A DNA stretch of 64,000 nt from an uncultured Collinsella sp. Lineage in GTDB: Bacteria; Actinomycetota; Coriobacteriia; Coriobacteriales; Coriobacteriaceae. Position 1 is the first letter of the stretch. Every line of letters starts with the position of its first letter. Below are positions 21,240-56,705 of the stretch, one piece after another. The notes under the pieces were generated by a model. It had not been told where the DNA came from and made no database searches. It worked only from the letters and a program-made list of their open reading frames with translations. The DNA lies in contig CAJKGW010000001.1 of assembly GCA_905199545.1 (NCBI GenBank), positions 144,606 through 208,605 on the forward strand, in the 5' to 3' direction. Made by a program: the position numbers and the translations under genes.

Positions 21240-21947
21240 CTACTCCCATTCCTGTTCGTAGATGTTGAGCGACTTCACATACCGCCCCTGGGCACCCATG
21301 ATGTCGCGGACCAGGCGCAAAAAGAAGCTGATGCACGAGGTGTCGAAACCGTCCTCCAGGTCCTCGGGATGCACCGAGCCCGGCCCGTCGACCGTCGTGT
21401 CGCTCAGGCGCGCGATGTCATACAGGTAGAGCTGCCCCGCCGTCAGCCAGACATCGTCGACGCACGCGAGTCGCACCGCAATCGCACCATCGTTCCAGCG
21501 CTCCTTTTGCACGATATGTGGGTCGTAGACGTCAAAGCGACGGTCGGTGCGCGTGTCCTTCAGCACGACCATGCCAGTCGCGGGATCCTTGTCCAAAATG
21601 CCAAAGCGCGAGAAATACTGCGTGTCACGCACCTGCTTAAGTCGCCCGAGCGAAGCAGGAGAAATTGACGCTGGCGGCTCGTCCACATACAGCTCCAACA
21701 GCGTCTTGCCGTGGTAATAGGGGCGCTCAAACAGCAGCCAATCGGTAAACGCCATGTTGTAGGCCATGATTTCGTTTTGAGATGGTTCCTCGCAATAGCT
21801 GAGCCACGGATCGACGATAATCTCGAACTGCTCGCGCGCCGGCTCCAGAAATTGAAACTTCCGCAGCATCCAAAAGTGAGCCATGTCGGCAATATCGTTG
21901 CCGACGGCCTCGGCCAGCTGCGCTCGATCAAAAACTTGGTCAGTCAT
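21240..21947 (-). CDS. Hypothetical protein
   Basis: 235-aa ORF with coding-like composition. No recognisable motif. Confidence 0.5.
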   Translation of the reverse strand: MTDQVFDRAQLAEAVGNDIADMAHFWMLRKFQFLEPAREQFEIIVDPWLSYCEEPSQNEIMAYNMAFTDWLLFERPYYHGKTLLELYVDEPPASISPASLGRLKQVRDTQYFSRFGILDKDPATGMVVLKDTRTDRRFDVYDPHIVQKERWNDGAIAVRLACVDDVWLTAGQLYLYDIARLSDTTVDGPGSVHPEDLEDGFDTSCISFFLRLVRDIMGAQGRYVKSLNIYEQEWE

Positions 21948-34109: not shown

Positions 34110-34186
34110 TGGTAGCCCGTACCAGATTCGAACTGGTGATCTCCGCCTTGAGAGGGCGGCGTCCTAAACCGCTAGACGAACGGGCC
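34110..34186 (-). tRNA. tRNA-Glu (anticodon CTC)
   Basis: Reverse strand GGCCCGTTCGTCTAGCGGTTTAGGACGCCGCCCTCTCAAGGCGG...GGTTCGAATC-like T-arm...ACGGGCTACCA. A cloverleaf can be drawn. Confidence 0.8.
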
Positions 34187-34203
34187 ATATGTAGCAAATG
34201 CAA

Positions 34204-34277
34204 TGGCTGGGATGGAGGGAGTCGAACCCCCATTGACGGAACCAGAATCCGCTGTCCTGCCATTAGACGACATCCCA
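34204..34277 (-). tRNA. tRNA-Gln (anticodon CTG)
   Basis: Reverse strand TGGGATGTCGTCTAATGGCAGGACAGCGGATTCTGGTTCCG...GGGGGTTCGACTCCCTCCATCCCAGCCA. Confidence 0.8.
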
Positions 34278-49109: not shown

Positions 49110-49535
49110 TTACTCAGCAGCCTCGGTGGTCTCGGCCTCGGCAGCGGCCTCCTCGACGGGAGCCTCTGCGGGAGCCTCGGCGGCCTGCTTGGCAGCCTCC
49201 TCGGCAAACTTAGCAGCACGCTTGGCCTTCTCGGCAGCCTTAGCCTCAGCGGCGGCCTTGCGAGCGGCCTCGGCCTCAGCAGCCTTGGCGGCCTTGGCAG
49301 CCTTGGCCTCCTCAGCCTTCTTGAGCTGGGCGGCAGCGGCGCCACCGAACTTGTCGGCGAAGCGCTGGACGCGTCCACCGGTGTCGACGAACTTCTGCTG
49401 GCCGGTGTAGAACGGGTGGCACTCGTTGCAAAGCTCGACCTTCATCTCGGACACGGTAGCGTGCGTCTTGAAGGTGTTGCCGCAGGAGCACGTCACCGTG
49501 CACTCGACATACTGGGGATGGATACCCTGCTTCAT
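49110..49535 (-). CDS. rpmE: Ribosomal protein L31 (Zn-ribbon type) fused to a ~75-aa Ala/Lys/Glu-rich C-terminal tail
   Basis: [22 protein letters not shown]...[10 protein letters not shown] is a canonical L31. It is followed by [30 protein letters not shown] low-complexity sequence. Confidence 0.8.
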
Positions 49536-49722
49536 GGTAGGACTCCTTATTGGTCAGGCGCTGGTTACCGATCAGCGCATAAGGCGTCTTGGTTTCCGAC
49601 CAAGACAACAAACTCGGCTATGGTACCACGGCGCCGCATGTCCCACAAAAGGTTCACGGTCTTTTCGGCACGACACGAGCTGGCCCTTGAATATCAACTA
49701 TCATCCGAACACTCCCCCACAT

Positions 49723-51531
49723 TCATCCTTCGTATGTATCGAGGTATTCCTGCTTGAGCGTCTGCGAGGACGACTTGATCTTTTCCACGAGCGTGCCGGC
49801 CTCGATGAAGTAGAACGAGTCGGTGAGGTCTGCCAGGTCGTCGAGCAGATGGCTTGAAATGAGCACGCTGCGTCCCCGCGCCACCTCGCTGCGCATCGCG
49901 TCGCAGGAGGTTTTCCGTTTTCCCGGATCGAGGCCGTTCAGCGGTTCATCGAGGATGAGGTACGGGCAATCGGTCGCTATCGCCATGGCAAGCTTTACCT
50001 GCTGCTTCATTCCTGTCGAGAGTTTACGGGTCGGCTTGTCGAGATATGGGGAGATTCCGAGGGAGTCGCAGAGCGAGTCGATGTCGGCGGCCGATTTCCA
50101 CGCCTCCCTAACGAAAGCAAGGTGCTCGATGGCCGATAGCGTGGGATAGAGATCCGCGCTGCCCGAAGAGCTCAGGTAGACGAGTTCTGCAAATTCGGCT
50201 GATCGACGTTGGCAGATTCCGTCTGCCGCCAGGCTTCCCGAGCGGATGCGGGTGGGAAATTGGCCCGACAGCGCTTCAAGAAGGGTGGTTTTCCCCGAGC
50301 CGTTGGGAGCAACGAGGCCCGCCGCCGTTCCCGGGCTCAGGAAAAGCGACCCGATTGAAAGTATCGTCGTGCTTCCGTATCCCACGCTCACGTCCAGAAG
50401 CTCGAGCCCATGGCGCTTTTTCGCGGGTCCAGGCTGTTTGGGCGAACGTGTCGCAACGGCGCCGACCGCAAAAAGGACCGCGACGTATGCCAGGGCCACG
50501 GCAAGCATCGATGCGCTGCCTGAACCGGAGCCAATGAATTCTGTCGGGAAGCATCCTACGTAACCCGTTGCCTCGATAGGCGAGAACACGGCCAGCGGCA
50601 GGAGCCCGAGCACGGCATTATGCCCTAGTGCCGAATCGGACAGCAACGGGAATGCCGGGGCCGCGACAAGCAGCGCTGAGGTAAGGGGGCCCGCGAGGAC
50701 GCGCCTCGTTGCGGTCGATAGGACGGCGGAGCAAACGGATATCAAGGTTCCGCCCGCAAGCAGCGCGAGAAGCAGGGCTGTGAAGACGTTTCCCGCGGTC
50801 GTGGTGGTAAGCGCGCCGTCATGGAAGAAGGCGATCGGGTACCCAATTTGCCCGAAGCCGTTTAGGACCAAGGCGTAAATGCCCCCGGGTGCGAGGCCGG
50901 CGAGGAGCATCGCGGTCCCCGCGACGATTATCGAAAACACGATCTGGATAAGGCGCCGGAATTTGGGCGCGGGCGCCTTTGCCGCCAGGGTCGCAGGCCT
51001 TGTGGCGCCGAGCACGAGTATCGACGAGAGAAGGAAGGGGATGAAGGGAAGGAAAGACGGCGCCGTGGCAATGGCGTAAGGCAGGAAGGAAAGGAATGGC
51101 AGGTCGTTTGCGGAGGCCGGGATATCCGTGATGCCGGAGCTGCTCAGGGCACGGCAATATGCGAGCGCTGCGTCATTGGTCTCTCGGTCTCCCACGATGG
51201 ACCCGGATTGGAAGCCTTCGCCCATGAGCGCGTAGTAGCTCTCGGCAGAATCGAGAAAGGCGGCGTCGGTTTGAGCGGCAAGGGCGGCGTTCGCGTATCT
51301 TGCAAGCTCCGCGTCAGCTTGCTGCTCTGGCGATAGGTCTGTGCCGCTGGCCTGGGGCGCGCGCGTATTGAATGCGTCGACAAAGCCCTGCATGCCCTGC
51401 TTCATAAAGAAGGGCCCGTAGATGGGTGAATTGAACGCAATGGGGACGGAAAAGGCTGCAGCGAGAACGAGCGTACAAATCCATGCGGCCTTGTCTCTTA
51501 GGATCAGTTTGAGAAGAAGTCGACAGTACAT
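49723..51531 (-). CDS. Fused ABC-2-type permease (N-terminal) and ABC ATPase (C-terminal)
   Basis: N-terminal ~390 aa are multi-TM. The C-terminus carries Walker A GLVAPNGSGKTTL, the signature LSTGMKQQ and Walker B LILDEP. Confidence 0.75.
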   Translation of the reverse strand: MYCRLLLKLILRDKAAWICTLVLAAAFSVPIAFNSPIYGPFFMKQGMQGFVDAFNTRAPQASGTDLSPEQQADAELARYANAALAAQTDAAFLDSAESYYALMGEGFQSGSIVGDRETNDAALAYCRALSSSGITDIPASANDLPFLSFLPYAIATAPSFLPFIPFLLSSILVLGATRPATLAAKAPAPKFRRLIQIVFSIIVAGTAMLLAGLAPGGIYALVLNGFGQIGYPIAFFHDGALTTTTAGNVFTALLLALLAGGTLISVCSAVLSTATRRVLAGPLTSALLVAAPAFPLLSDSALGHNAVLGLLPLAVFSPIEATGYVGCFPTEFIGSGSGSASMLAVALAYVAVLFAVGAVATRSPKQPGPAKKRHGLELLDVSVGYGSTTILSIGSLFLSPGTAAGLVAPNGSGKTTLLEALSGQFPTRIRSGSLAADGICQRRSAEFAELVYLSSSGSADLYPTLSAIEHLAFVREAWKSAADIDSLCDSLGISPYLDKPTRKLSTGMKQQVKLAMAIATDCPYLILDEPLNGLDPGKRKTSCDAMRSEVARGRSVLISSHLLDDLADLTDSFYFIEAGTLVEKIKSSSQTLKQEYLDTYEG

Positions 51532-51684
51532 TCAGAAGCACCTACGTTCCTCAAAGAATCGTTAGATTAAAAGTAACAGACCGGATGAAGATACGTGCGA
51601 CGGGGGCGAGGCGAATGGCTGAGCGGTATCGATACGCGGGTTCAACGGTATCACATTGGCCACATAGATTTTTAACTTGCATTT

Positions 51685-52434
51685 CTACCCGCCCTTTTCG
51701 TAGAGTCGCCGATACGTGCTTAGCGCACCCTCGGCGCGTCCGGCAGGCTTTGCGAAATGGGATCCAGGAGACTTCGGCGCAGCATCATCTTGCGGAATGC
51801 TTCTAATGAGCCTCCCATCCTTCAAAAACAGAATCTCATCGCACAGCCTATCGACCGAATCCAAGATGTGGGATGACATGATGATGCACGTACCAGAATC
51901 GGCCAGCTTCCTGAGAATCTCGGAATGCAAGTCCACCCTGCTGGGGTCGAGCGCGTTCATGGGCTCATCTAATAGAAGGTACCGCGCGCCCGTCGCATAC
52001 GCAATCGCCAGGGTAAGCTGCTGCTTCATGCCCTGGCTCAGAGTGCGGATCCTCATCTTCGCGAACTCGCCTATCTGCGTTTGTTCCACTATCTCTTCGA
52101 TATCGCGAGCATGCGGCCACATATCGCAAACCATCTTGAGGTGATCTTCCGCACGCAATCCGGGATACAGCAGCGTCCCCTCACCAGGTGCATAGAAGAT
52201 CATAGAACGGACCTCTCTCGCACCCGTACCCTGCACCTCATCCAGAACGATGCTCCCGTCCACGCGAGGACCCGGCAAACCTGCCATCGCACGCAGCAAC
52301 GTCGTCTTTCCATGCCCGTTCGGAGCGACGAGACCGTAGACCGTACCCGGGGCAAACTCAGCGTTCACCGAATCTACGAGCACCTTCTTTCCATAAGAGA
52401 TCGTCAGCGTTTGAAGGTCAATCATCGAGATCAT
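51685..52434 (-). CDS. ABC transporter ATP-binding protein
   Basis: Walker A GLVAPNGHGKTTL, signature LSQGMKQQ, Walker B LLLDEP. The ATGA start overlaps the stop of the upstream permease. Confidence 0.85.
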   Translation of the reverse strand: MISMIDLQTLTISYGKKVLVDSVNAEFAPGTVYGLVAPNGHGKTTLLRAMAGLPGPRVDGSIVLDEVQGTGAREVRSMIFYAPGEGTLLYPGLRAEDHLKMVCDMWPHARDIEEIVEQTQIGEFAKMRIRTLSQGMKQQLTLAIAYATGARYLLLDEPMNALDPSRVDLHSEILRKLADSGTCIIMSSHILDSVDRLCDEILFLKDGRLIRSIPQDDAAPKSPGSHFAKPAGRAEGALSTYRRLYEKGG

Positions 52435-54653
52435 CCCCTTTCGATCTTTGGAACACTCAGGCGCACCATCAACGGAGATACGGCGCCCAAGACCACCAGC
52501 AGAGCGCCCGATGCGCCGACGACCTCTCCAAAAGGCATCGCGTTCGTCCCTCGCCCAAGGAACCCAATCGTCCCCACCTGGGAAGCGGGATCAAACGAGG
52601 CGAATGGAGCCAGCAGCGCGACGCCCATGCCCACGCTTTCAACATGAGCGCTCAACGAACCCAACACCAAGAGAACCGCGCAAACCATTCCGGTGACAAC
52701 GGAGTTGCGGCTAATCGCTGCTGTCAACGCAGCGACGACGGAAATCACGCCGTATGCCATGACCAGCAACGGAATACTGCACAACACCGCCTCCCCCACC
52801 GTGGACGTTGTCGAAGCTCCCGCCCGAATGAGAGCGACGGGATACTCCGATCCACCCGCACCGTTCTTAATCACGGACACAACGACAGCGGGAACCATCG
52901 ACACCAAAAGCAGCACCAAGCCAAGCAGGAGAGCCAGCGCAACAGCCGTCAGAAAACGCACATGCGCTGTTGCGGGGATCTGGAGAACCAGAAGGGAACG
53001 ACACTGCAGGTGGGTGCACGCGAGCGATGTGACAACCACGGGCAACAGCAAAAATAAGGAGGGAAGCGCTGCCTGGAGATACGAAAGGAGGATTAATGGG
53101 GGCATCTTCGTACTTAACTCGTAAACCTTGGGGTCCGGCAAGCTCGCGATCGACTCAAGCAGAAGGGCGCGCGCCTCCGCACGAGAAGGAGTCTCCGGCT
53201 CGATTCCGATCGATTGCAGGAGAGTCGCATCTGCCGCGCCCAGCTCACCTCGAGCGCGCTCGTACGTCGCAAGGCTTCGAAACCCCTCCGCAGGCATAGG
53301 CGCGTACACGAAACCCGAAAGAGCATCCCGCATGTCTTCCAGGGCCGCTTTGCCCTCGACGTCCATATTCGCAGCGTTCTGCTCTAGATACCGATCTATT
53401 GAACGGAGCTCTCCATCCCTATACCGAACAGCGGAAACGTTATCAGCGTCAGGAAACATCTCGACCAGAGCCGGGGCCAGCATCGTCGTCGACATTGCAA
53501 TCGCGCATACGGCGAGGGTAGGAGAACGCAGGAGCAGTTTCCCCATCGTTCTTACGTATGCAACGGCGAAGGCACAAGCGCTCGAACGAGTTGCCGTTCT
53601 CGATGCAGTGAAGGAACCTCTCTCAAGACAAATCGGGGATATCGGGCACGCGCAGCCGCTCTTTCCAGCAACGCAAAGCAGGCTAATTGCCAGCACCTCG
53701 ATCCCGATTGCGCATACGAGGGCAATCGCGCCACGCTCGAAGCAAAGTCCAGGCAGATTCACTATCTGCGTTGTCGGGTACGGGCTATAGGCGCCGACGG
53801 TCAACTCAGTGTTCGCATACGTAAGGGGATTCAACAGGGCGAACTCACGTAAAGCGATGGATCTTCCGTAATACCCGGGAACCATCGTCACCCCCATCAG
53901 GGCACATACGAACACGATTCCAAGCGTAGGGTTATTGGCAATCTTCACGGCAAGGTGAACGACAAGCGAGATGAACGCTGCCACCAAGAATTGCAAGATG
54001 GCCGTCTGCGCGAACACCAGCCAAGCCGGTTTGATAACCGGAGTCGCATATTGAATGTAGCCTATCGGATAGAACGGCGAGCCCGGGCCATTCTTCACAA
54101 GCGCGGCGATTATCCCTGGAAGATTGATGGCGAGGACGGCAAGCATTGCAAAAACACTCGCCCATACGCTCGATGCAACAAGTCTACCCAGCTCGCCCAT
54201 CGGTGCCTGGATGATGAGCTTTTCACGTTTGTTAAGACGCGCGGCAAGGAACGAGACGGCAACGGCCGTTGCGACCCATAGCAAGTACTCCTTCGATCCG
54301 TCATAATAGGTGTACTCTCCATCCGATATCTGCAGAAACGGAAGTAGGGGAGAGAGCGGTGCCAAGATAAGACGTCCCGCGGCAAGAGGGTACAGAAGCG
54401 CGGGCATGCTTGATGAAGAGGTACAGACACCGTCCTCCCCCGCATTCACAAGCGCATCCGCATAGGATGCTGACAATTCCTGCTCAACACGGGTTATTCC
54501 CGACTCGAGGTATTCGACCCGTCCGTCGATGCCAGCCGCGCTCCTGAAGACGGCCAGAGCACAAAGAACCATCAACGCAACAACGACAACACAGAGCGAC
54601 CTGGAGGAGAGAAGCGACCTAAAGATCGCCTTCGAGATTTTGAGCATATTCAT
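52431..54653 (-). CDS. Large polytopic permease with duplicated modules; presumed ABC-2 partner
   Basis: 741 aa with many TM segments and two large non-TM domains. Translationally coupled to the ATPase. Confidence 0.55.
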   Translation of the reverse strand: MNMLKISKAIFRSLLSSRSLCVVVVALMVLCALAVFRSAAGIDGRVEYLESGITRVEQELSASYADALVNAGEDGVCTSSSSMPALLYPLAAGRLILAPLSPLLPFLQISDGEYTYYDGSKEYLLWVATAVAVSFLAARLNKREKLIIQAPMGELGRLVASSVWASVFAMLAVLAINLPGIIAALVKNGPGSPFYPIGYIQYATPVIKPAWLVFAQTAILQFLVAAFISLVVHLAVKIANNPTLGIVFVCALMGVTMVPGYYGRSIALREFALLNPLTYANTELTVGAYSPYPTTQIVNLPGLCFERGAIALVCAIGIEVLAISLLCVAGKSGCACPISPICLERGSFTASRTATRSSACAFAVAYVRTMGKLLLRSPTLAVCAIAMSTTMLAPALVEMFPDADNVSAVRYRDGELRSIDRYLEQNAANMDVEGKAALEDMRDALSGFVYAPMPAEGFRSLATYERARGELGAADATLLQSIGIEPETPSRAEARALLLESIASLPDPKVYELSTKMPPLILLSYLQAALPSLFLLLPVVVTSLACTHLQCRSLLVLQIPATAHVRFLTAVALALLLGLVLLLVSMVPAVVVSVIKNGAGGSEYPVALIRAGASTTSTVGEAVLCSIPLLVMAYGVISVVAALTAAISRNSVVTGMVCAVLLVLGSLSAHVESVGMGVALLAPFASFDPASQVGTIGFLGRGTNAMPFGEVVGASGALLVVLGAVSPLMVRLSVPKIERG

Positions 54654-54719
54654 CGCCAACCTTAACCTCATCCAGTCGGAACAGAAGGGCCGAACAAAAT
54701 GCTCGGCCCTTCCTCGCAT

Positions 54720-55085
54720 CTAGTAGGTGCTATAGACAAATTGCCATTTATCAGTTGTGCCAAGAACACCACAGGAGCACATTGCAGCGAGGCGGGATTC
54801 CCTATGATGCGCGGATCGGCGATAGCCATTTCGGTAGGAAATCGTCTTGTAAGAGATGTTGAACATCGAGATGCTGTGCCCGCTTACGCCGCGAGGACAG
54901 CTGTAGCTCCAGTAGGTATCGACGACGTCGTCCGTATACCCGAGGGGCTCAACGAGGGCACACTGGCTGCTCTCATGGGAAGGAGGCATCGGGGTATCCG
55001 CAAAAGCGGGGGCTCCCGGCAGCAACAAACAAAGAGCGAGGCCGAGGAAAACCAAGAGCTTACACGACTTAACAGTACTGAACAT
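54720..55085 (-). CDS. Small secreted Cys-containing protein (signal peptide then ~95-aa mature part)
   Basis: MFSTVKSCKLLVFLGLALCLLLPGAPAFA|DTP... with an AxA cleavage site and 5 Cys in the mature part. GGAGAGGA SD. Local AT-richness. Confidence 0.5.
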   Translation of the reverse strand: MFSTVKSCKLLVFLGLALCLLLPGAPAFADTPMPPSHESSQCALVEPLGYTDDVVDTYWSYSCPRGVSGHSISMFNISYKTISYRNGYRRSAHHRESRLAAMCSCGVLGTTDKWQFVYSTY

Positions 55086-55205
55086 AATCCTCTCCAATCT
55101 AGAGGGGTTTCGGTTGCAGTATGCTGTGATTACTTGCCGGCAAAGTCAATTTAACATAAACTGTTAAAAAGTAACCTGAGTTTTTTAAATTCTTCGGAGG
55201 TTATT

Positions 55206-55718
55206 ATGAGTTCCGACAATCGCACTCCCCGGCTTCATTCCTTCCGCATCGCATGTGCGATAGCCTCTGCGACCCTTTGCGCCACCGCCATCGCACAAGT
55301 GGCGTTCTCCTTAAAGCCAGCAATCGAAGTGCTCGACAACCCTGTAATTGCAGACTCCCCCGCGTATCCAGCCCTTGCGATCTCGACATTGGTCCCTGCC
55401 GTCATCGGTATCGCTACGACCATCCTCAGCGCCGTTCTCGTGTGGACGATCAAGAGCGGAGACCCCTTCAAGAAAGGGTCTGCGACATGCTTGAAGGTGC
55501 TCGGCATTCTCTTCGTTGTTCAAGCTGCCACCAGCCTCTACGCCGGCTCACTCAAAACCTCCGTTTCGATGTTTGGCGGCGAGGGGGCCGTCGGCGCCCA
55601 AGAGATCGCTTCATCATTCGATTGGACCTCTCTGGTTCTCGGCATCGTCCTGTTCATGCTTTCCCAGCTCTTCTTGTACGCCCGAGAGCTGTACCTCGAC
55701 TCCGACGAGATTGCGTAA
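55206..55718 (+). CDS. DUF2975-family membrane protein
   Basis: ~170 aa with 4 TM segments, in the classic pairing with a YozG-like HTH downstream. GGAGG SD. Confidence 0.65.
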   Translation: MSSDNRTPRLHSFRIACAIASATLCATAIAQVAFSLKPAIEVLDNPVIADSPAYPALAISTLVPAVIGIATTILSAVLVWTIKSGDPFKKGSATCLKVLGILFVVQAATSLYAGSLKTSVSMFGGEGAVGAQEIASSFDWTSLVLGIVLFMLSQLFLYARELYLDSDEIA

Positions 55719-55727
55719 GGAAACGCC

Positions 55728-55979
55728 ATGCCCGTAATTGTTCGCCTCGACAAGATCATGGCCGAGCGAAAGATTTCCTCGAACGAACTTGCCGAAAGGA
55801 TTGGAACCACGCCCGTGAACCTGTCCCGTATTAAAAAAGGGCATATTCGCGGCATTCGCTTCAACACACTCGAGCAGCTATGCCTCGCCCTTCGTTGCCA
55901 ACCCGGAGACCTTCTCGAAGTCATGAGCGAAGAGGATGCCCGAAAGGAGTTCGGACTCGATTGGTCCGCCGAGGATTAG
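55728..55979 (+). CDS. YozG-like (COG3655) HTH transcriptional regulator
   Basis: IVRLDKIMAERKISSNELAERIGTTPVNLSRIKKGHIRGIRFNTLEQLCLALRCQPGDLLE matches the YozG consensus closely. Confidence 0.8.
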   Translation: MPVIVRLDKIMAERKISSNELAERIGTTPVNLSRIKKGHIRGIRFNTLEQLCLALRCQPGDLLEVMSEEDARKEFGLDWSAED

Positions 55980-56705
55980 AGGGCGGTCGTACTCGCCCTG
56001 CACACGGGGATGCGAATCGGCGAGGTCTGCGGCCTTCGGTGGTGCGATGTGGATTTCGAGACGGGCCTGATCTCGATCAGACACTCGGTGGCGTACGCGA
56101 AGGGAATGGGTTCGTTCATCAAGGACACCAAGACCCATGACGCCAGGGGTATCCCCATCGACCCGGTCGGCCTACTCCCCTTCCTGAAGGAGACCCACGA
56201 GATCGACTGCGGAAAGCTGCGCTTGCGCGGCCTTACCGGGGCGGTCGAGATCGGGGACTGCTACATCCTGTCGGAGCCGGGCGCGACCTTCGCGACGACA
56301 AGCTATATCCGCAGGGCGTTCAAGACGTTCTCGGAGACCAACGGCCTCATGGGCACCAACGACGAGCTGATCACGTTCCACGGCCTTCGCCACACGTTCG
56401 CAACGCAGTGGATCCGCCAAGGCGGCGATATCAAGGCGCTCCAATCGATCCTCGGCCACAAGGACGCCATGGCGACGCTCAACGTCTACGCCGACATCGA
56501 GCCCATCTCCAAAATCCATAACATGCTGCGCGCCACGCCGTGCCTTTGGCGCGGGCACCTCGGGCCGAGGGTCGATCCGGGTCCCATGTTCCAACAGAGG
56601 ATCCAGGAGTCCATCGAGACGCTCCAGGCGTTCGGCTACGGCATCACCGAGCCGGACGACCGAAATATCGCCATACGCGACGTAAAGACGAACAGTTGGC
56701 TCTAG
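55980..56705 (+). pseudogene. Tyrosine recombinase/phage integrase, catalytic C-terminal half only (remnant)
   Basis: ALHTGMRIGEVCGLRWCDVDF (catalytic R box), HGLRHTFAT, LGH...TLNVY (Y nucleophile). The reading frame continues directly from the yozG stop codon with no N-terminal core-binding domain or start. Confidence 0.65.

Follow-up and report, generated by a model that had tools for sequence, protein, structure and literature searches.

Two described bacteriocin systems come closest to the locus analysed here. In the lactococcin 972 system (lcn972-orf2-orf3, plasmid pBL1 of Lactococcus lactis), the gene of a small, unmodified, Sec-exported protein is followed by genes for a large membrane protein and an ATP-binding cassette (ABC) ATPase, which are thought to give immunity (PMC4055356). 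Propionicin T1 of Propionibacterium thoenii (pctA-orf2) is an actinobacterial, Sec-dependent bacteriocin; an ABC-type protein is encoded just downstream, for which a role in immunity, not export, has been proposed (PMC5756557). The locus described here lies in a 64,000-nucleotide stretch from an uncultured Collinsella sp. (contig CAJKGW010000001.1, positions 144,606 to 208,605), hereafter the window, which is high-GC DNA of the chromosome of the Collinsella aerofaciens complex. Between window positions 49,723 and 55,085, a gene for a small secreted protein is followed by genes for a large permease, an ABC ATPase and a permease-ATPase fusion. The main outcome of the analysis is that a family of secreted proteins and a family of ABC-2-like exporters, both undescribed, are genetically coupled in Collinsella. 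The idea that the small protein is a bacteriocin, put forward in a preliminary description of the sequence, remains circumstantial and is weighed below. The four genes are the following.

54720-55085, minus strand: 121-residue precursor with a Sec signal, giving a secreted product of about 10.4 kDa; a dispensable accessory gene
52431-54653, minus strand: large permease, 740 residues from its ATG, with two homologous modules and no Pfam or NCBIfam match
51685-52434, minus strand: ABC ATPase of 249 residues, assigned to the DrrA/NodI/LanF class (PF00005, E = 1.7e-21)
49723-51531, minus strand: half-transporter fusion of 602 residues, one permease module (residues 1 to about 370) joined to an ABC ATPase

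All four open reading frames (ORFs) are present on the minus strand where the preliminary description had placed them, and they are more than chance ORFs: none of 80 related genomes has a disrupted gene for the large permease, whose ratio of nonsynonymous to synonymous polymorphism (pN/pS) is 0.22. The survey sample consists of 80 species-representative genomes whose large permease shares at least 99% identity with that of the window; proteins at this level of identity are found in many Collinsella genomes, including C. aerofaciens ATCC 25986. The stop codon of the permease gene is overlapped by the start of the ATPase gene as ATGA, suggesting translational coupling, and a gap of 153 nt separates the ATPase gene from that of the fusion; both the overlap and the fused permease-ATPase had been recognized earlier. 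The ATPase domain of the fusion also matches PF00005 (E = 7.3e-19), the two ATPases are 36% identical, and the Walker A, Walker B and H-loop motifs can be read in the translation of the 249-residue protein. This last protein carries 36 nonsynonymous and 12 synonymous segregating sites (77 genomes; pN/pS 0.95), with its catalytic motifs intact. The large permease had been described as a duplicated protein of 741 residues; that length counts one codon too many, while the duplication is borne out, as the two modules match each other at E = 7e-10 and the C-terminal one aligns with the N-terminal half of the fusion (E = 4e-24). With pairwise E-values from 4e-24 to 6e-7, the three permease modules are paralogs. 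In each, the hydropathy profile indicates a first transmembrane (TM) helix, an outside loop of about 85-130 residues, and then about five further TM helices.

The gene of the small protein starts with an ATG at 55085, and GGAGAGG, the strong Shine-Dalgarno sequence noted before, lies 5 nt on its 5' side. The precursor features an n-region with two lysines and a hydrophobic core, and its signal (residues 1-29) ends, as expected from the earlier reading, in an AxA site, with predicted cleavage between AFA and DT. A lipobox of the form [LVI][ASTVI][GAS]C was not found in the 121-residue protein, the sequence LALC having leucine at position -1. The mature product contains four cysteines in 92 residues, and the cysteines are not conserved among its paralogs; "Cys-rich" was therefore an overstatement. 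The protein has no Pfam, NCBIfam or PDB family match, so that it falls into no known lipoprotein or cell-wall family and the bacteriocin idea is not refuted on this count, and no copy of it was found in phage and viral collections.

To judge from shared motifs and pairwise matches, the 121-residue protein belongs to a new Collinsella family of small secreted proteins. All members have predicted signal peptidase I sites; the mature proteins have 80-112 residues and an isoelectric point (pI) of 7.1-9.1, and are rich in Tyr, Ser and Thr. The paralogs are only 17-43% identical, yet they keep the motifs D-x-[VL]-[LVK]-[DN]-x-Y, Y-[KR]-x-[LI]-x-[FY] and a C-terminal aromatic-x-[CF]-x-Y. Besides the window protein, the family includes a paralog of 114 residues; p117, encoded on the 0.9-Mb replicon NZ_OY725717.1; and pl132 and pl139, tandem signal-peptide proteins on the C. 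aerofaciens plasmid NZ_OY725718.1, which was reached through a weak tblastn match. In BLASTP, p117 matches the 121-residue protein at 1.6e-7, the 114-residue protein at 1.3e-6, pl132 at 2e-13 and pl139 at 5.6e-4, and the 121-residue protein matches pl132 at 1e-8. A leave-one-out hidden Markov model, run against 18,009 ORFs, recovers the 121-residue protein (E = 2.9e-5) but misses the 114-residue protein (E = 2.6), which therefore joins the family only through p117.

The small proteins occur repeatedly beside exporters of one family. The 121-residue protein's gene precedes the two-module permease and the ATPase; the gene of the 114-residue protein begins, in most genomes, 1 nt after the stop of the gene for the fusion (602 or 604 residues); and the p117 gene lies 15 nt after that of a 633-residue fusion paralog (L104), which shares 26% identity with the fusion of the window (E = 4e-33). 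All three family members located on the chromosome or on the 0.9-Mb replicon thus adjoin a paralogous exporter of one rare ABC family, and it is from this repeated, tight pairing that a functional link is argued. The tandem pl132 and pl139 genes on the plasmid have no adjoining exporter. Divergent from them, at 21299-21721 on the minus strand of L093 (NZ_OY725718.1), is a gene for a protein of 140 residues with four predicted TM helices, a candidate small immunity protein.

In the survey, the gene of the 121-residue protein is present in 37 of 80 genomes (98.6-100% nucleotide identity). It is intact in 34, and three copies carry nonsense alleles, all in the signal peptide (S7 to stop twice, K9 to stop once). 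The other 43 genomes have lost it: 42 show clean empty sites of 126 or 127 nt, and one (L035) has an independent deletion in which 15 nt at the start of the insert and 12 nt at its end remain. Among sequenced isolates, ATCC 25986 (L013) is without the gene, and CLA-JM-H32 (L016), 16-6-I_3_FM (L017) and AF29-7AC (L032) have it. Metagenome assemblies hold further alleles: several with frameshifts, one with 82 bp deleted and one with an in-frame loss of 40 codons. The gene is dispensable and has been lost repeatedly and independently, through nonsense mutations, frameshifts and three different deletions. Its pN/pS is 0.68, estimated from only 10 segregating sites with two nonsense alleles counted, well above the value for the large permease. 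It is located between the promoter-operator region on one side and a 14-bp leader hairpin on the other, both of them conserved (see below).

The arrangement has the gene order of the lactococcin 972 system (small gene, permease, ATPase) and shares the Sec signal of the small protein, a match that is architectural only. Neither the 121-residue protein nor the 114-residue paralog matches PF09683 or TIGR01653 at E<=10, and homology was rejected when the alignment of four family sequences was compared with a sequence of lactococcin 972 that was entered by hand (hhalign probability 0.3). In addition, the permease does not belong to the lactococcin-associated membrane protein family (TIGR01654/DUF1430), and the ATPase is of the DrrA/NodI class. 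Mature lactococcin 972 has 66 residues; the mature proteins of the present family are larger, at 80-112 residues. The same difference in size is seen with propionicin T1, which has 65 residues in its mature form and is itself cationic, whereas the 121-residue precursor gives a neutral product. No homology to propionicin T1 was found by way of the family libraries, no direct comparison having been made.

The permeases appear to form a rare, undescribed ABC-2-like family that is absent from Pfam and NCBIfam. In Pfam, the large permease and 30 relatives match only ATPase-type domains and one isolated LMBR1; in NCBIfam, the window's permease, the permease half of the fusion and nine relatives match no permease model beyond a weak GldF in two relatives (E = 0.0018 and 0.015). 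ABC2_membrane in particular is not matched in Pfam by the window proteins or the 30 relatives, which by hydropathy have about six TM helices per module. A sequence search of the PDB with the permease profile gave nothing significant, and an AlphaFold2 model of the large permease from its single sequence was too poor to use (predicted local distance difference test score, pLDDT, 39.5). Among 1.8 billion representative proteins, which were searched exhaustively, no more than 126 relatives reached E<1e-3. These come in two-module (725-884 residues), single-module (about 370-400 residues) and fused (about 600-650 residues) forms, and the motif NGxGxxxYP is common to the family. When a word-indexed protein database was searched with a profile of distant relatives, nothing beyond close copies from Collinsella came back. 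As no match of the transporter set to a characterised nutrient or multidrug exporter was found, the bacteriocin idea is not refuted from this side either. An arms-race signal in the outside loops was considered and dropped: the divergence from an 80%-identical allele falls in the inter-module linker and in the TM region of the second module.

The ATPase, by its profile matches, is of the DrrA/NodI/CcmA class. Its top NCBIfam matches are galliderm_ABC, NodI, DrrA, GldA, PmtA/C and CcmA, with E-values from 1e-25 to 6e-36, all of them below the equivalog cut-offs. The best, TIGR03740 (E = 6e-36), scores 124.2 bits where the cut-off is 309.75, and the fusion reaches 83.5 bits. LanFEG with the lipoprotein LanI is likewise an ABC-2-type exporter, expelling an envelope-targeting peptide often with the help of an extracytoplasmic binding protein, and a lipoprotein encoded in a sister clade of the present exporters echoes LanI. 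Unlike those of LanFEG, however, the permeases here are much larger and have long outside loops, and lanthipeptide precursor or modification genes were not found nearby. The PmtABCD system of Staphylococcus combines two ATPases with ABC-2 permeases, exports peptide toxins and protects the producer. PmtA and PmtC are among the matches of the ATPase, but PmtD reaches only E = 2.1 against the permease profile, and the small proteins here use Sec.

In having a long outside loop next to their first TM helix, the modules resemble MacB/FtsX (type VII) and BceAB-type transporters, and the preliminary description had pointed to FtsX/MacB on account of two sizeable extracytoplasmic domains. The comparison was nevertheless rejected, as there are about six and not four TM helices per module, FtsX (PF02687) is not matched, and the ATPase is of the DrrA/NodI class. 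With about six TM helices per module, the permeases look ABC-2-like rather than MacB/FtsX-like.

The second of the pairings described above belongs to a mobile module, which starts at window position 51670 and encodes the fusion and, normally, the 114-residue paralog directly downstream. In the window the gene of the paralog is deleted, leaving a scar at 49679-49719; it is present in L001 and L005. The module of fusion and paralog is found on two independent plasmids from different isolates, at 96-97.5% identity and with the shared sequence beginning at the same position, and one of the two also bears the tandem paralogs next to the four-TM protein. No plasmid was found that carries the large permease. 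About 30 of the 80 genome contigs end at window positions of about 51341-51616, in the spacer between ATPase and fusion or in the first 60 or so codons of the fusion (e.g. L011, L014, L016, L019-L022, L026-L028 and L030), and L084 has a scaffold gap there that is flanked by a 290-bp overlap. A second, plasmid-borne copy of the module accounts for these ends.

The slot downstream of the exporter can also hold other genes. On a metagenome contig (L004:13474-14839) the fusion is cut after 63 codons and replaced by genes for proteins of 219 residues (twin-arginine-like signal, Gly/Ser-rich) and 141 residues (signal-anchored), neither of which has a family match. The same 141-residue gene occupies the slot after the fusion gene in L071 (11938-12429).

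The regulatory surroundings of the exporter operon, and the element that flanks the block, comprise the following features.

55728-55979, plus strand: HTH_26 (Cro/C1-type) regulator of 83 residues, divergent from the exporter operon (PF13443, E = 4.9e-21)
55206-55718, plus strand: DUF2975-like membrane protein of 170 residues, first of the divergent pair (PF11188, E = 3.2e-4)
55150-55168, no strand: inverted repeat TTTAACA-N5-TGTTAAA in the divergent promoter region, putative operator
54683-54713, minus strand: 14-bp GC-rich hairpin without a U-tract, leader element of the permease operon, just 3' of the small-gene stop and 30 nt before the permease start
56010-56705, plus strand: truncated tyrosine recombinase of 231 residues, catalytic domain only, flanking the block (PF00589, E = 6.8e-19 from profile position 36)

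The HTH_26 protein is 100% identical in L001. An ortholog of 80 residues is found at the same position in L097, beside a permease that is only 29% identical, together with a 171-residue counterpart of the DUF2975-like protein. The DUF2975 assignment itself is below the cut-off (21 bits against 27), and a literature text search on DUF2975 gave nothing relevant. The equivalent intergenic region of L097 contains the same half-sites at the same spacing, TTAACA-N5-TGTTAA, and we infer that the inverted repeat is the operator of the HTH_26 protein, which would bind there as a repressor. This upstream intergenic region has 36.7% GC, and it is the only part of the surroundings to which the earlier description as AT-rich applies.

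The leader hairpin folds with a minimum free energy of -33.8 kcal/mol over an 86-nt stretch (z = -3.4), and compensatory changes are seen at the base of its stem in L028, L004 and L035. It is present at the empty sites too and is therefore not specific to the small gene; for the same reason it was not taken as evidence of attenuation between a structural gene and an immunity gene. The recombinase remnant is kept in 78 of 80 genomes. The GC content at third codon positions (GC3) of the regulator, the small gene and the ABC block is 0.63-0.71, compared with 0.83-0.86 for secA and citrate synthase. Together, the remnant and the atypical GC3 suggest an old acquired island.

As a whole, this is a composite accessory locus of the C. 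aerofaciens complex. The old core would consist of the divergent pair of HTH_26 repressor and DUF2975-like protein, the operator TTAACA-N5-TGTTAA, and the operon of two-module permease and ATPase. Two additions would have followed in Collinsella, namely the placement of the 121-residue protein's gene between the promoter and the permease, and the arrival of the mobile module with the fusion and the 114-residue paralog. Because of its position between promoter and permease, the gene of the 121-residue protein is presumably co-transcribed with the exporter and subject to the same repressor.

We tentatively propose, with some doubt, that the small proteins are Sec-exported, bacteriocin-like proteins with ABC self-protection. 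They would leave the cell through Sec, with signal peptidase I removing the signal; the secreted protein would antagonise the cell envelope of related bacteria, and the adjoining ABC exporter would clear it from the producer's own membrane, acting as the means of immunity and not as the export route. With its Sec signal, the small protein does not require the ABC system in order to reach the outside, and the export function contained in the preliminary description is unlikely. What supports that description's bacteriocin idea is the repeated pairing, the plasmid-borne module and the asymmetry of gene loss; the architecture shared with lactococcin 972 and propionicin T1 counts in its favour as well. 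In all 24 loci where the gene of the 114-residue paralog is intact, so is the fusion gene, and the paralog's gene is missing from both loci whose fusion gene is truncated. Exporters are retained without small genes in 43 of 80 genomes and in 11 loci; the reverse, an intact small gene next to a disrupted exporter, was never seen. Recurrent loss of the small gene with the exporter kept fits the loss of a costly toxin while immunity stays. A wider form of the proposal, which is possible though slightly more doubtful, is that these proteins represent an unrecognised class of Sec-exported, unmodified bacteriocins of about 10 kDa in gut Coriobacteriia, each matched to its own ABC-2-like exporter, with modules moving between plasmid and chromosome and a population polymorphic for producers and immune non-producers.

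Several observations weigh against a toxin with dedicated immunity. The small proteins have no sequence link to any known bacteriocin in Pfam, NCBIfam, the PDB or the lactococcin 972 comparison. The mature 121-residue product is neutral (pI 7.06) and hydrophilic, without an amphipathic or hydrophobic stretch, and its paralogs have a pI of 7.8-9.1; its AlphaFold2 model is all-beta and of such low confidence (pLDDT 47) as to be unusable. The asymmetry of loss has little power as a test, there being only two disrupted exporters, and the loss of the small gene, given its pN/pS and the 10 sites, also fits any dispensable gene. The exporter, moreover, has a history of its own. More than 560 species-level genomes contain the permease-ATPase core, and in L097 the two-module permease and ATPase keep the regulator pair and the repeat without a small gene. 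The core predates the small gene and does not depend on it. A single-module relative adjoins a BlaI/BlaR1-like pair and a fused relative adjoins PadR and a membrane protein, stress-type regulators as expected beside a general inducible exporter. Finally, a sister clade has an operon of permease, ATPase and a lipoprotein of about 300 residues, with 29% identity for the lipoprotein and about 43% for the permeases.

L085:9439-10341, L086:8100-8987, L090:9724-10653 and L101:6224-7126: sister-clade lipoprotein, with a twin-arginine-like signal, lipobox LAGC and no family match

A lipoprotein cannot be a diffusible toxin, and its presence suggests an accessory role for the outside partner. The core is an exporter of old standing, controlled by regulators and often accompanied by an extracytoplasmic partner. 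On this basis the main rival explanation, which we consider unlikely but deserving of attention, takes the small proteins to be extracytoplasmic partners of the exporter, which bind or present its substrate or sequester an incoming antimicrobial, much as LanI does with LanFEG. They would correspond one to one with the exporter paralogs, and the system would be an inducible resistance or detoxification pump. The sister-clade operon agrees with this, as do the sensor-repressor pairs beside the relatives, which are typical of drug and envelope-stress responses; the one-to-one pairing with divergent paralogs fits co-evolution of such partners as well as it fits toxin and immunity. However, the small proteins have signal peptidase I sites with neither lipobox nor anchor, so they should diffuse away, and they have no detectable homology to the sister-clade lipoprotein. 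Purifying selection acts on the exporter, which is kept in full by the 43 genomes without the 121-residue protein's gene and therefore does not need that gene, and two tandem paralogs lie on a plasmid with no exporter beside them. Free secretion of the small proteins and an exporter that does not need them weaken the explanation.

It is improbable that the small gene is mere cargo that came to lie by chance in a variable slot beside the exporter and has no functional link to it, encoding, for instance, a surface or secreted protein for interactions with the host, phages or the immune system. A variable slot of this kind is indeed suggested by the unrelated signal-peptide genes (141 and 219 residues) that fill the downstream position in L004 and L071, by the atypical GC3 and recombinase remnant of the block, and by the frequent loss of the 121-residue protein's gene. 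Chance co-location is nevertheless unlikely, because three independent, divergent members each adjoin a paralog of an ABC family with only those 126 relatives among 1.8 billion proteins, two of the pairs lying close together, 1 nt and 15 nt apart. Very improbable is a decaying remnant without current function, which the pN/pS of 0.68 (two nonsense alleles counted), the many metagenome frameshift alleles and the deletion in 43 genomes would suit, since 34 of 37 copies are intact and nearly identical, with ribosome-binding site and signal peptide kept, and the family motifs are conserved across paralogs as divergent as these.

The neighbours of the block in the window are rpmE, secA, the regulator pair, the recombinase remnant and citrate synthase. 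The rpmE gene (49110-49535, minus strand) encodes an L31 protein of 141 residues with a C-terminal tail of about 75 residues rich in Ala, Lys and Glu, and just upstream of it, at 49543-49578 on the minus strand, is an L31-Coriobacteria leader (RF03128; 35.1 bits against a gathering threshold of 33). Elsewhere, an ORF of 179 codons on the plus strand (1152-1691) lies in a patch of 47% GC, the window being otherwise about 60% GC, and tRNA-Glu(CTC) adjoins tRNA-Gln(CTG) at 34110-34277 on the minus strand.

Collinsella aerofaciens is among the most prevalent Actinomycetota of the human gut and shows extreme diversity at the strain level. No search made in the analysis, a literature text search for Collinsella bacteriocins among them, gave anything that links this locus or protein family to a described bacteriocin. 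As the small proteins match no known family, profiles of the BAGEL or antiSMASH type cannot detect them. If the proposal of toxin and immunity is correct, the locus would provide a concrete mechanism for competition between Collinsella strains, and would represent a new bacteriocin family together with a new family of immunity transporters. Even if the small proteins are not toxins, the locus offers two unannotated protein families, a conserved module of regulator and operator, and a genetic association that can be tested.

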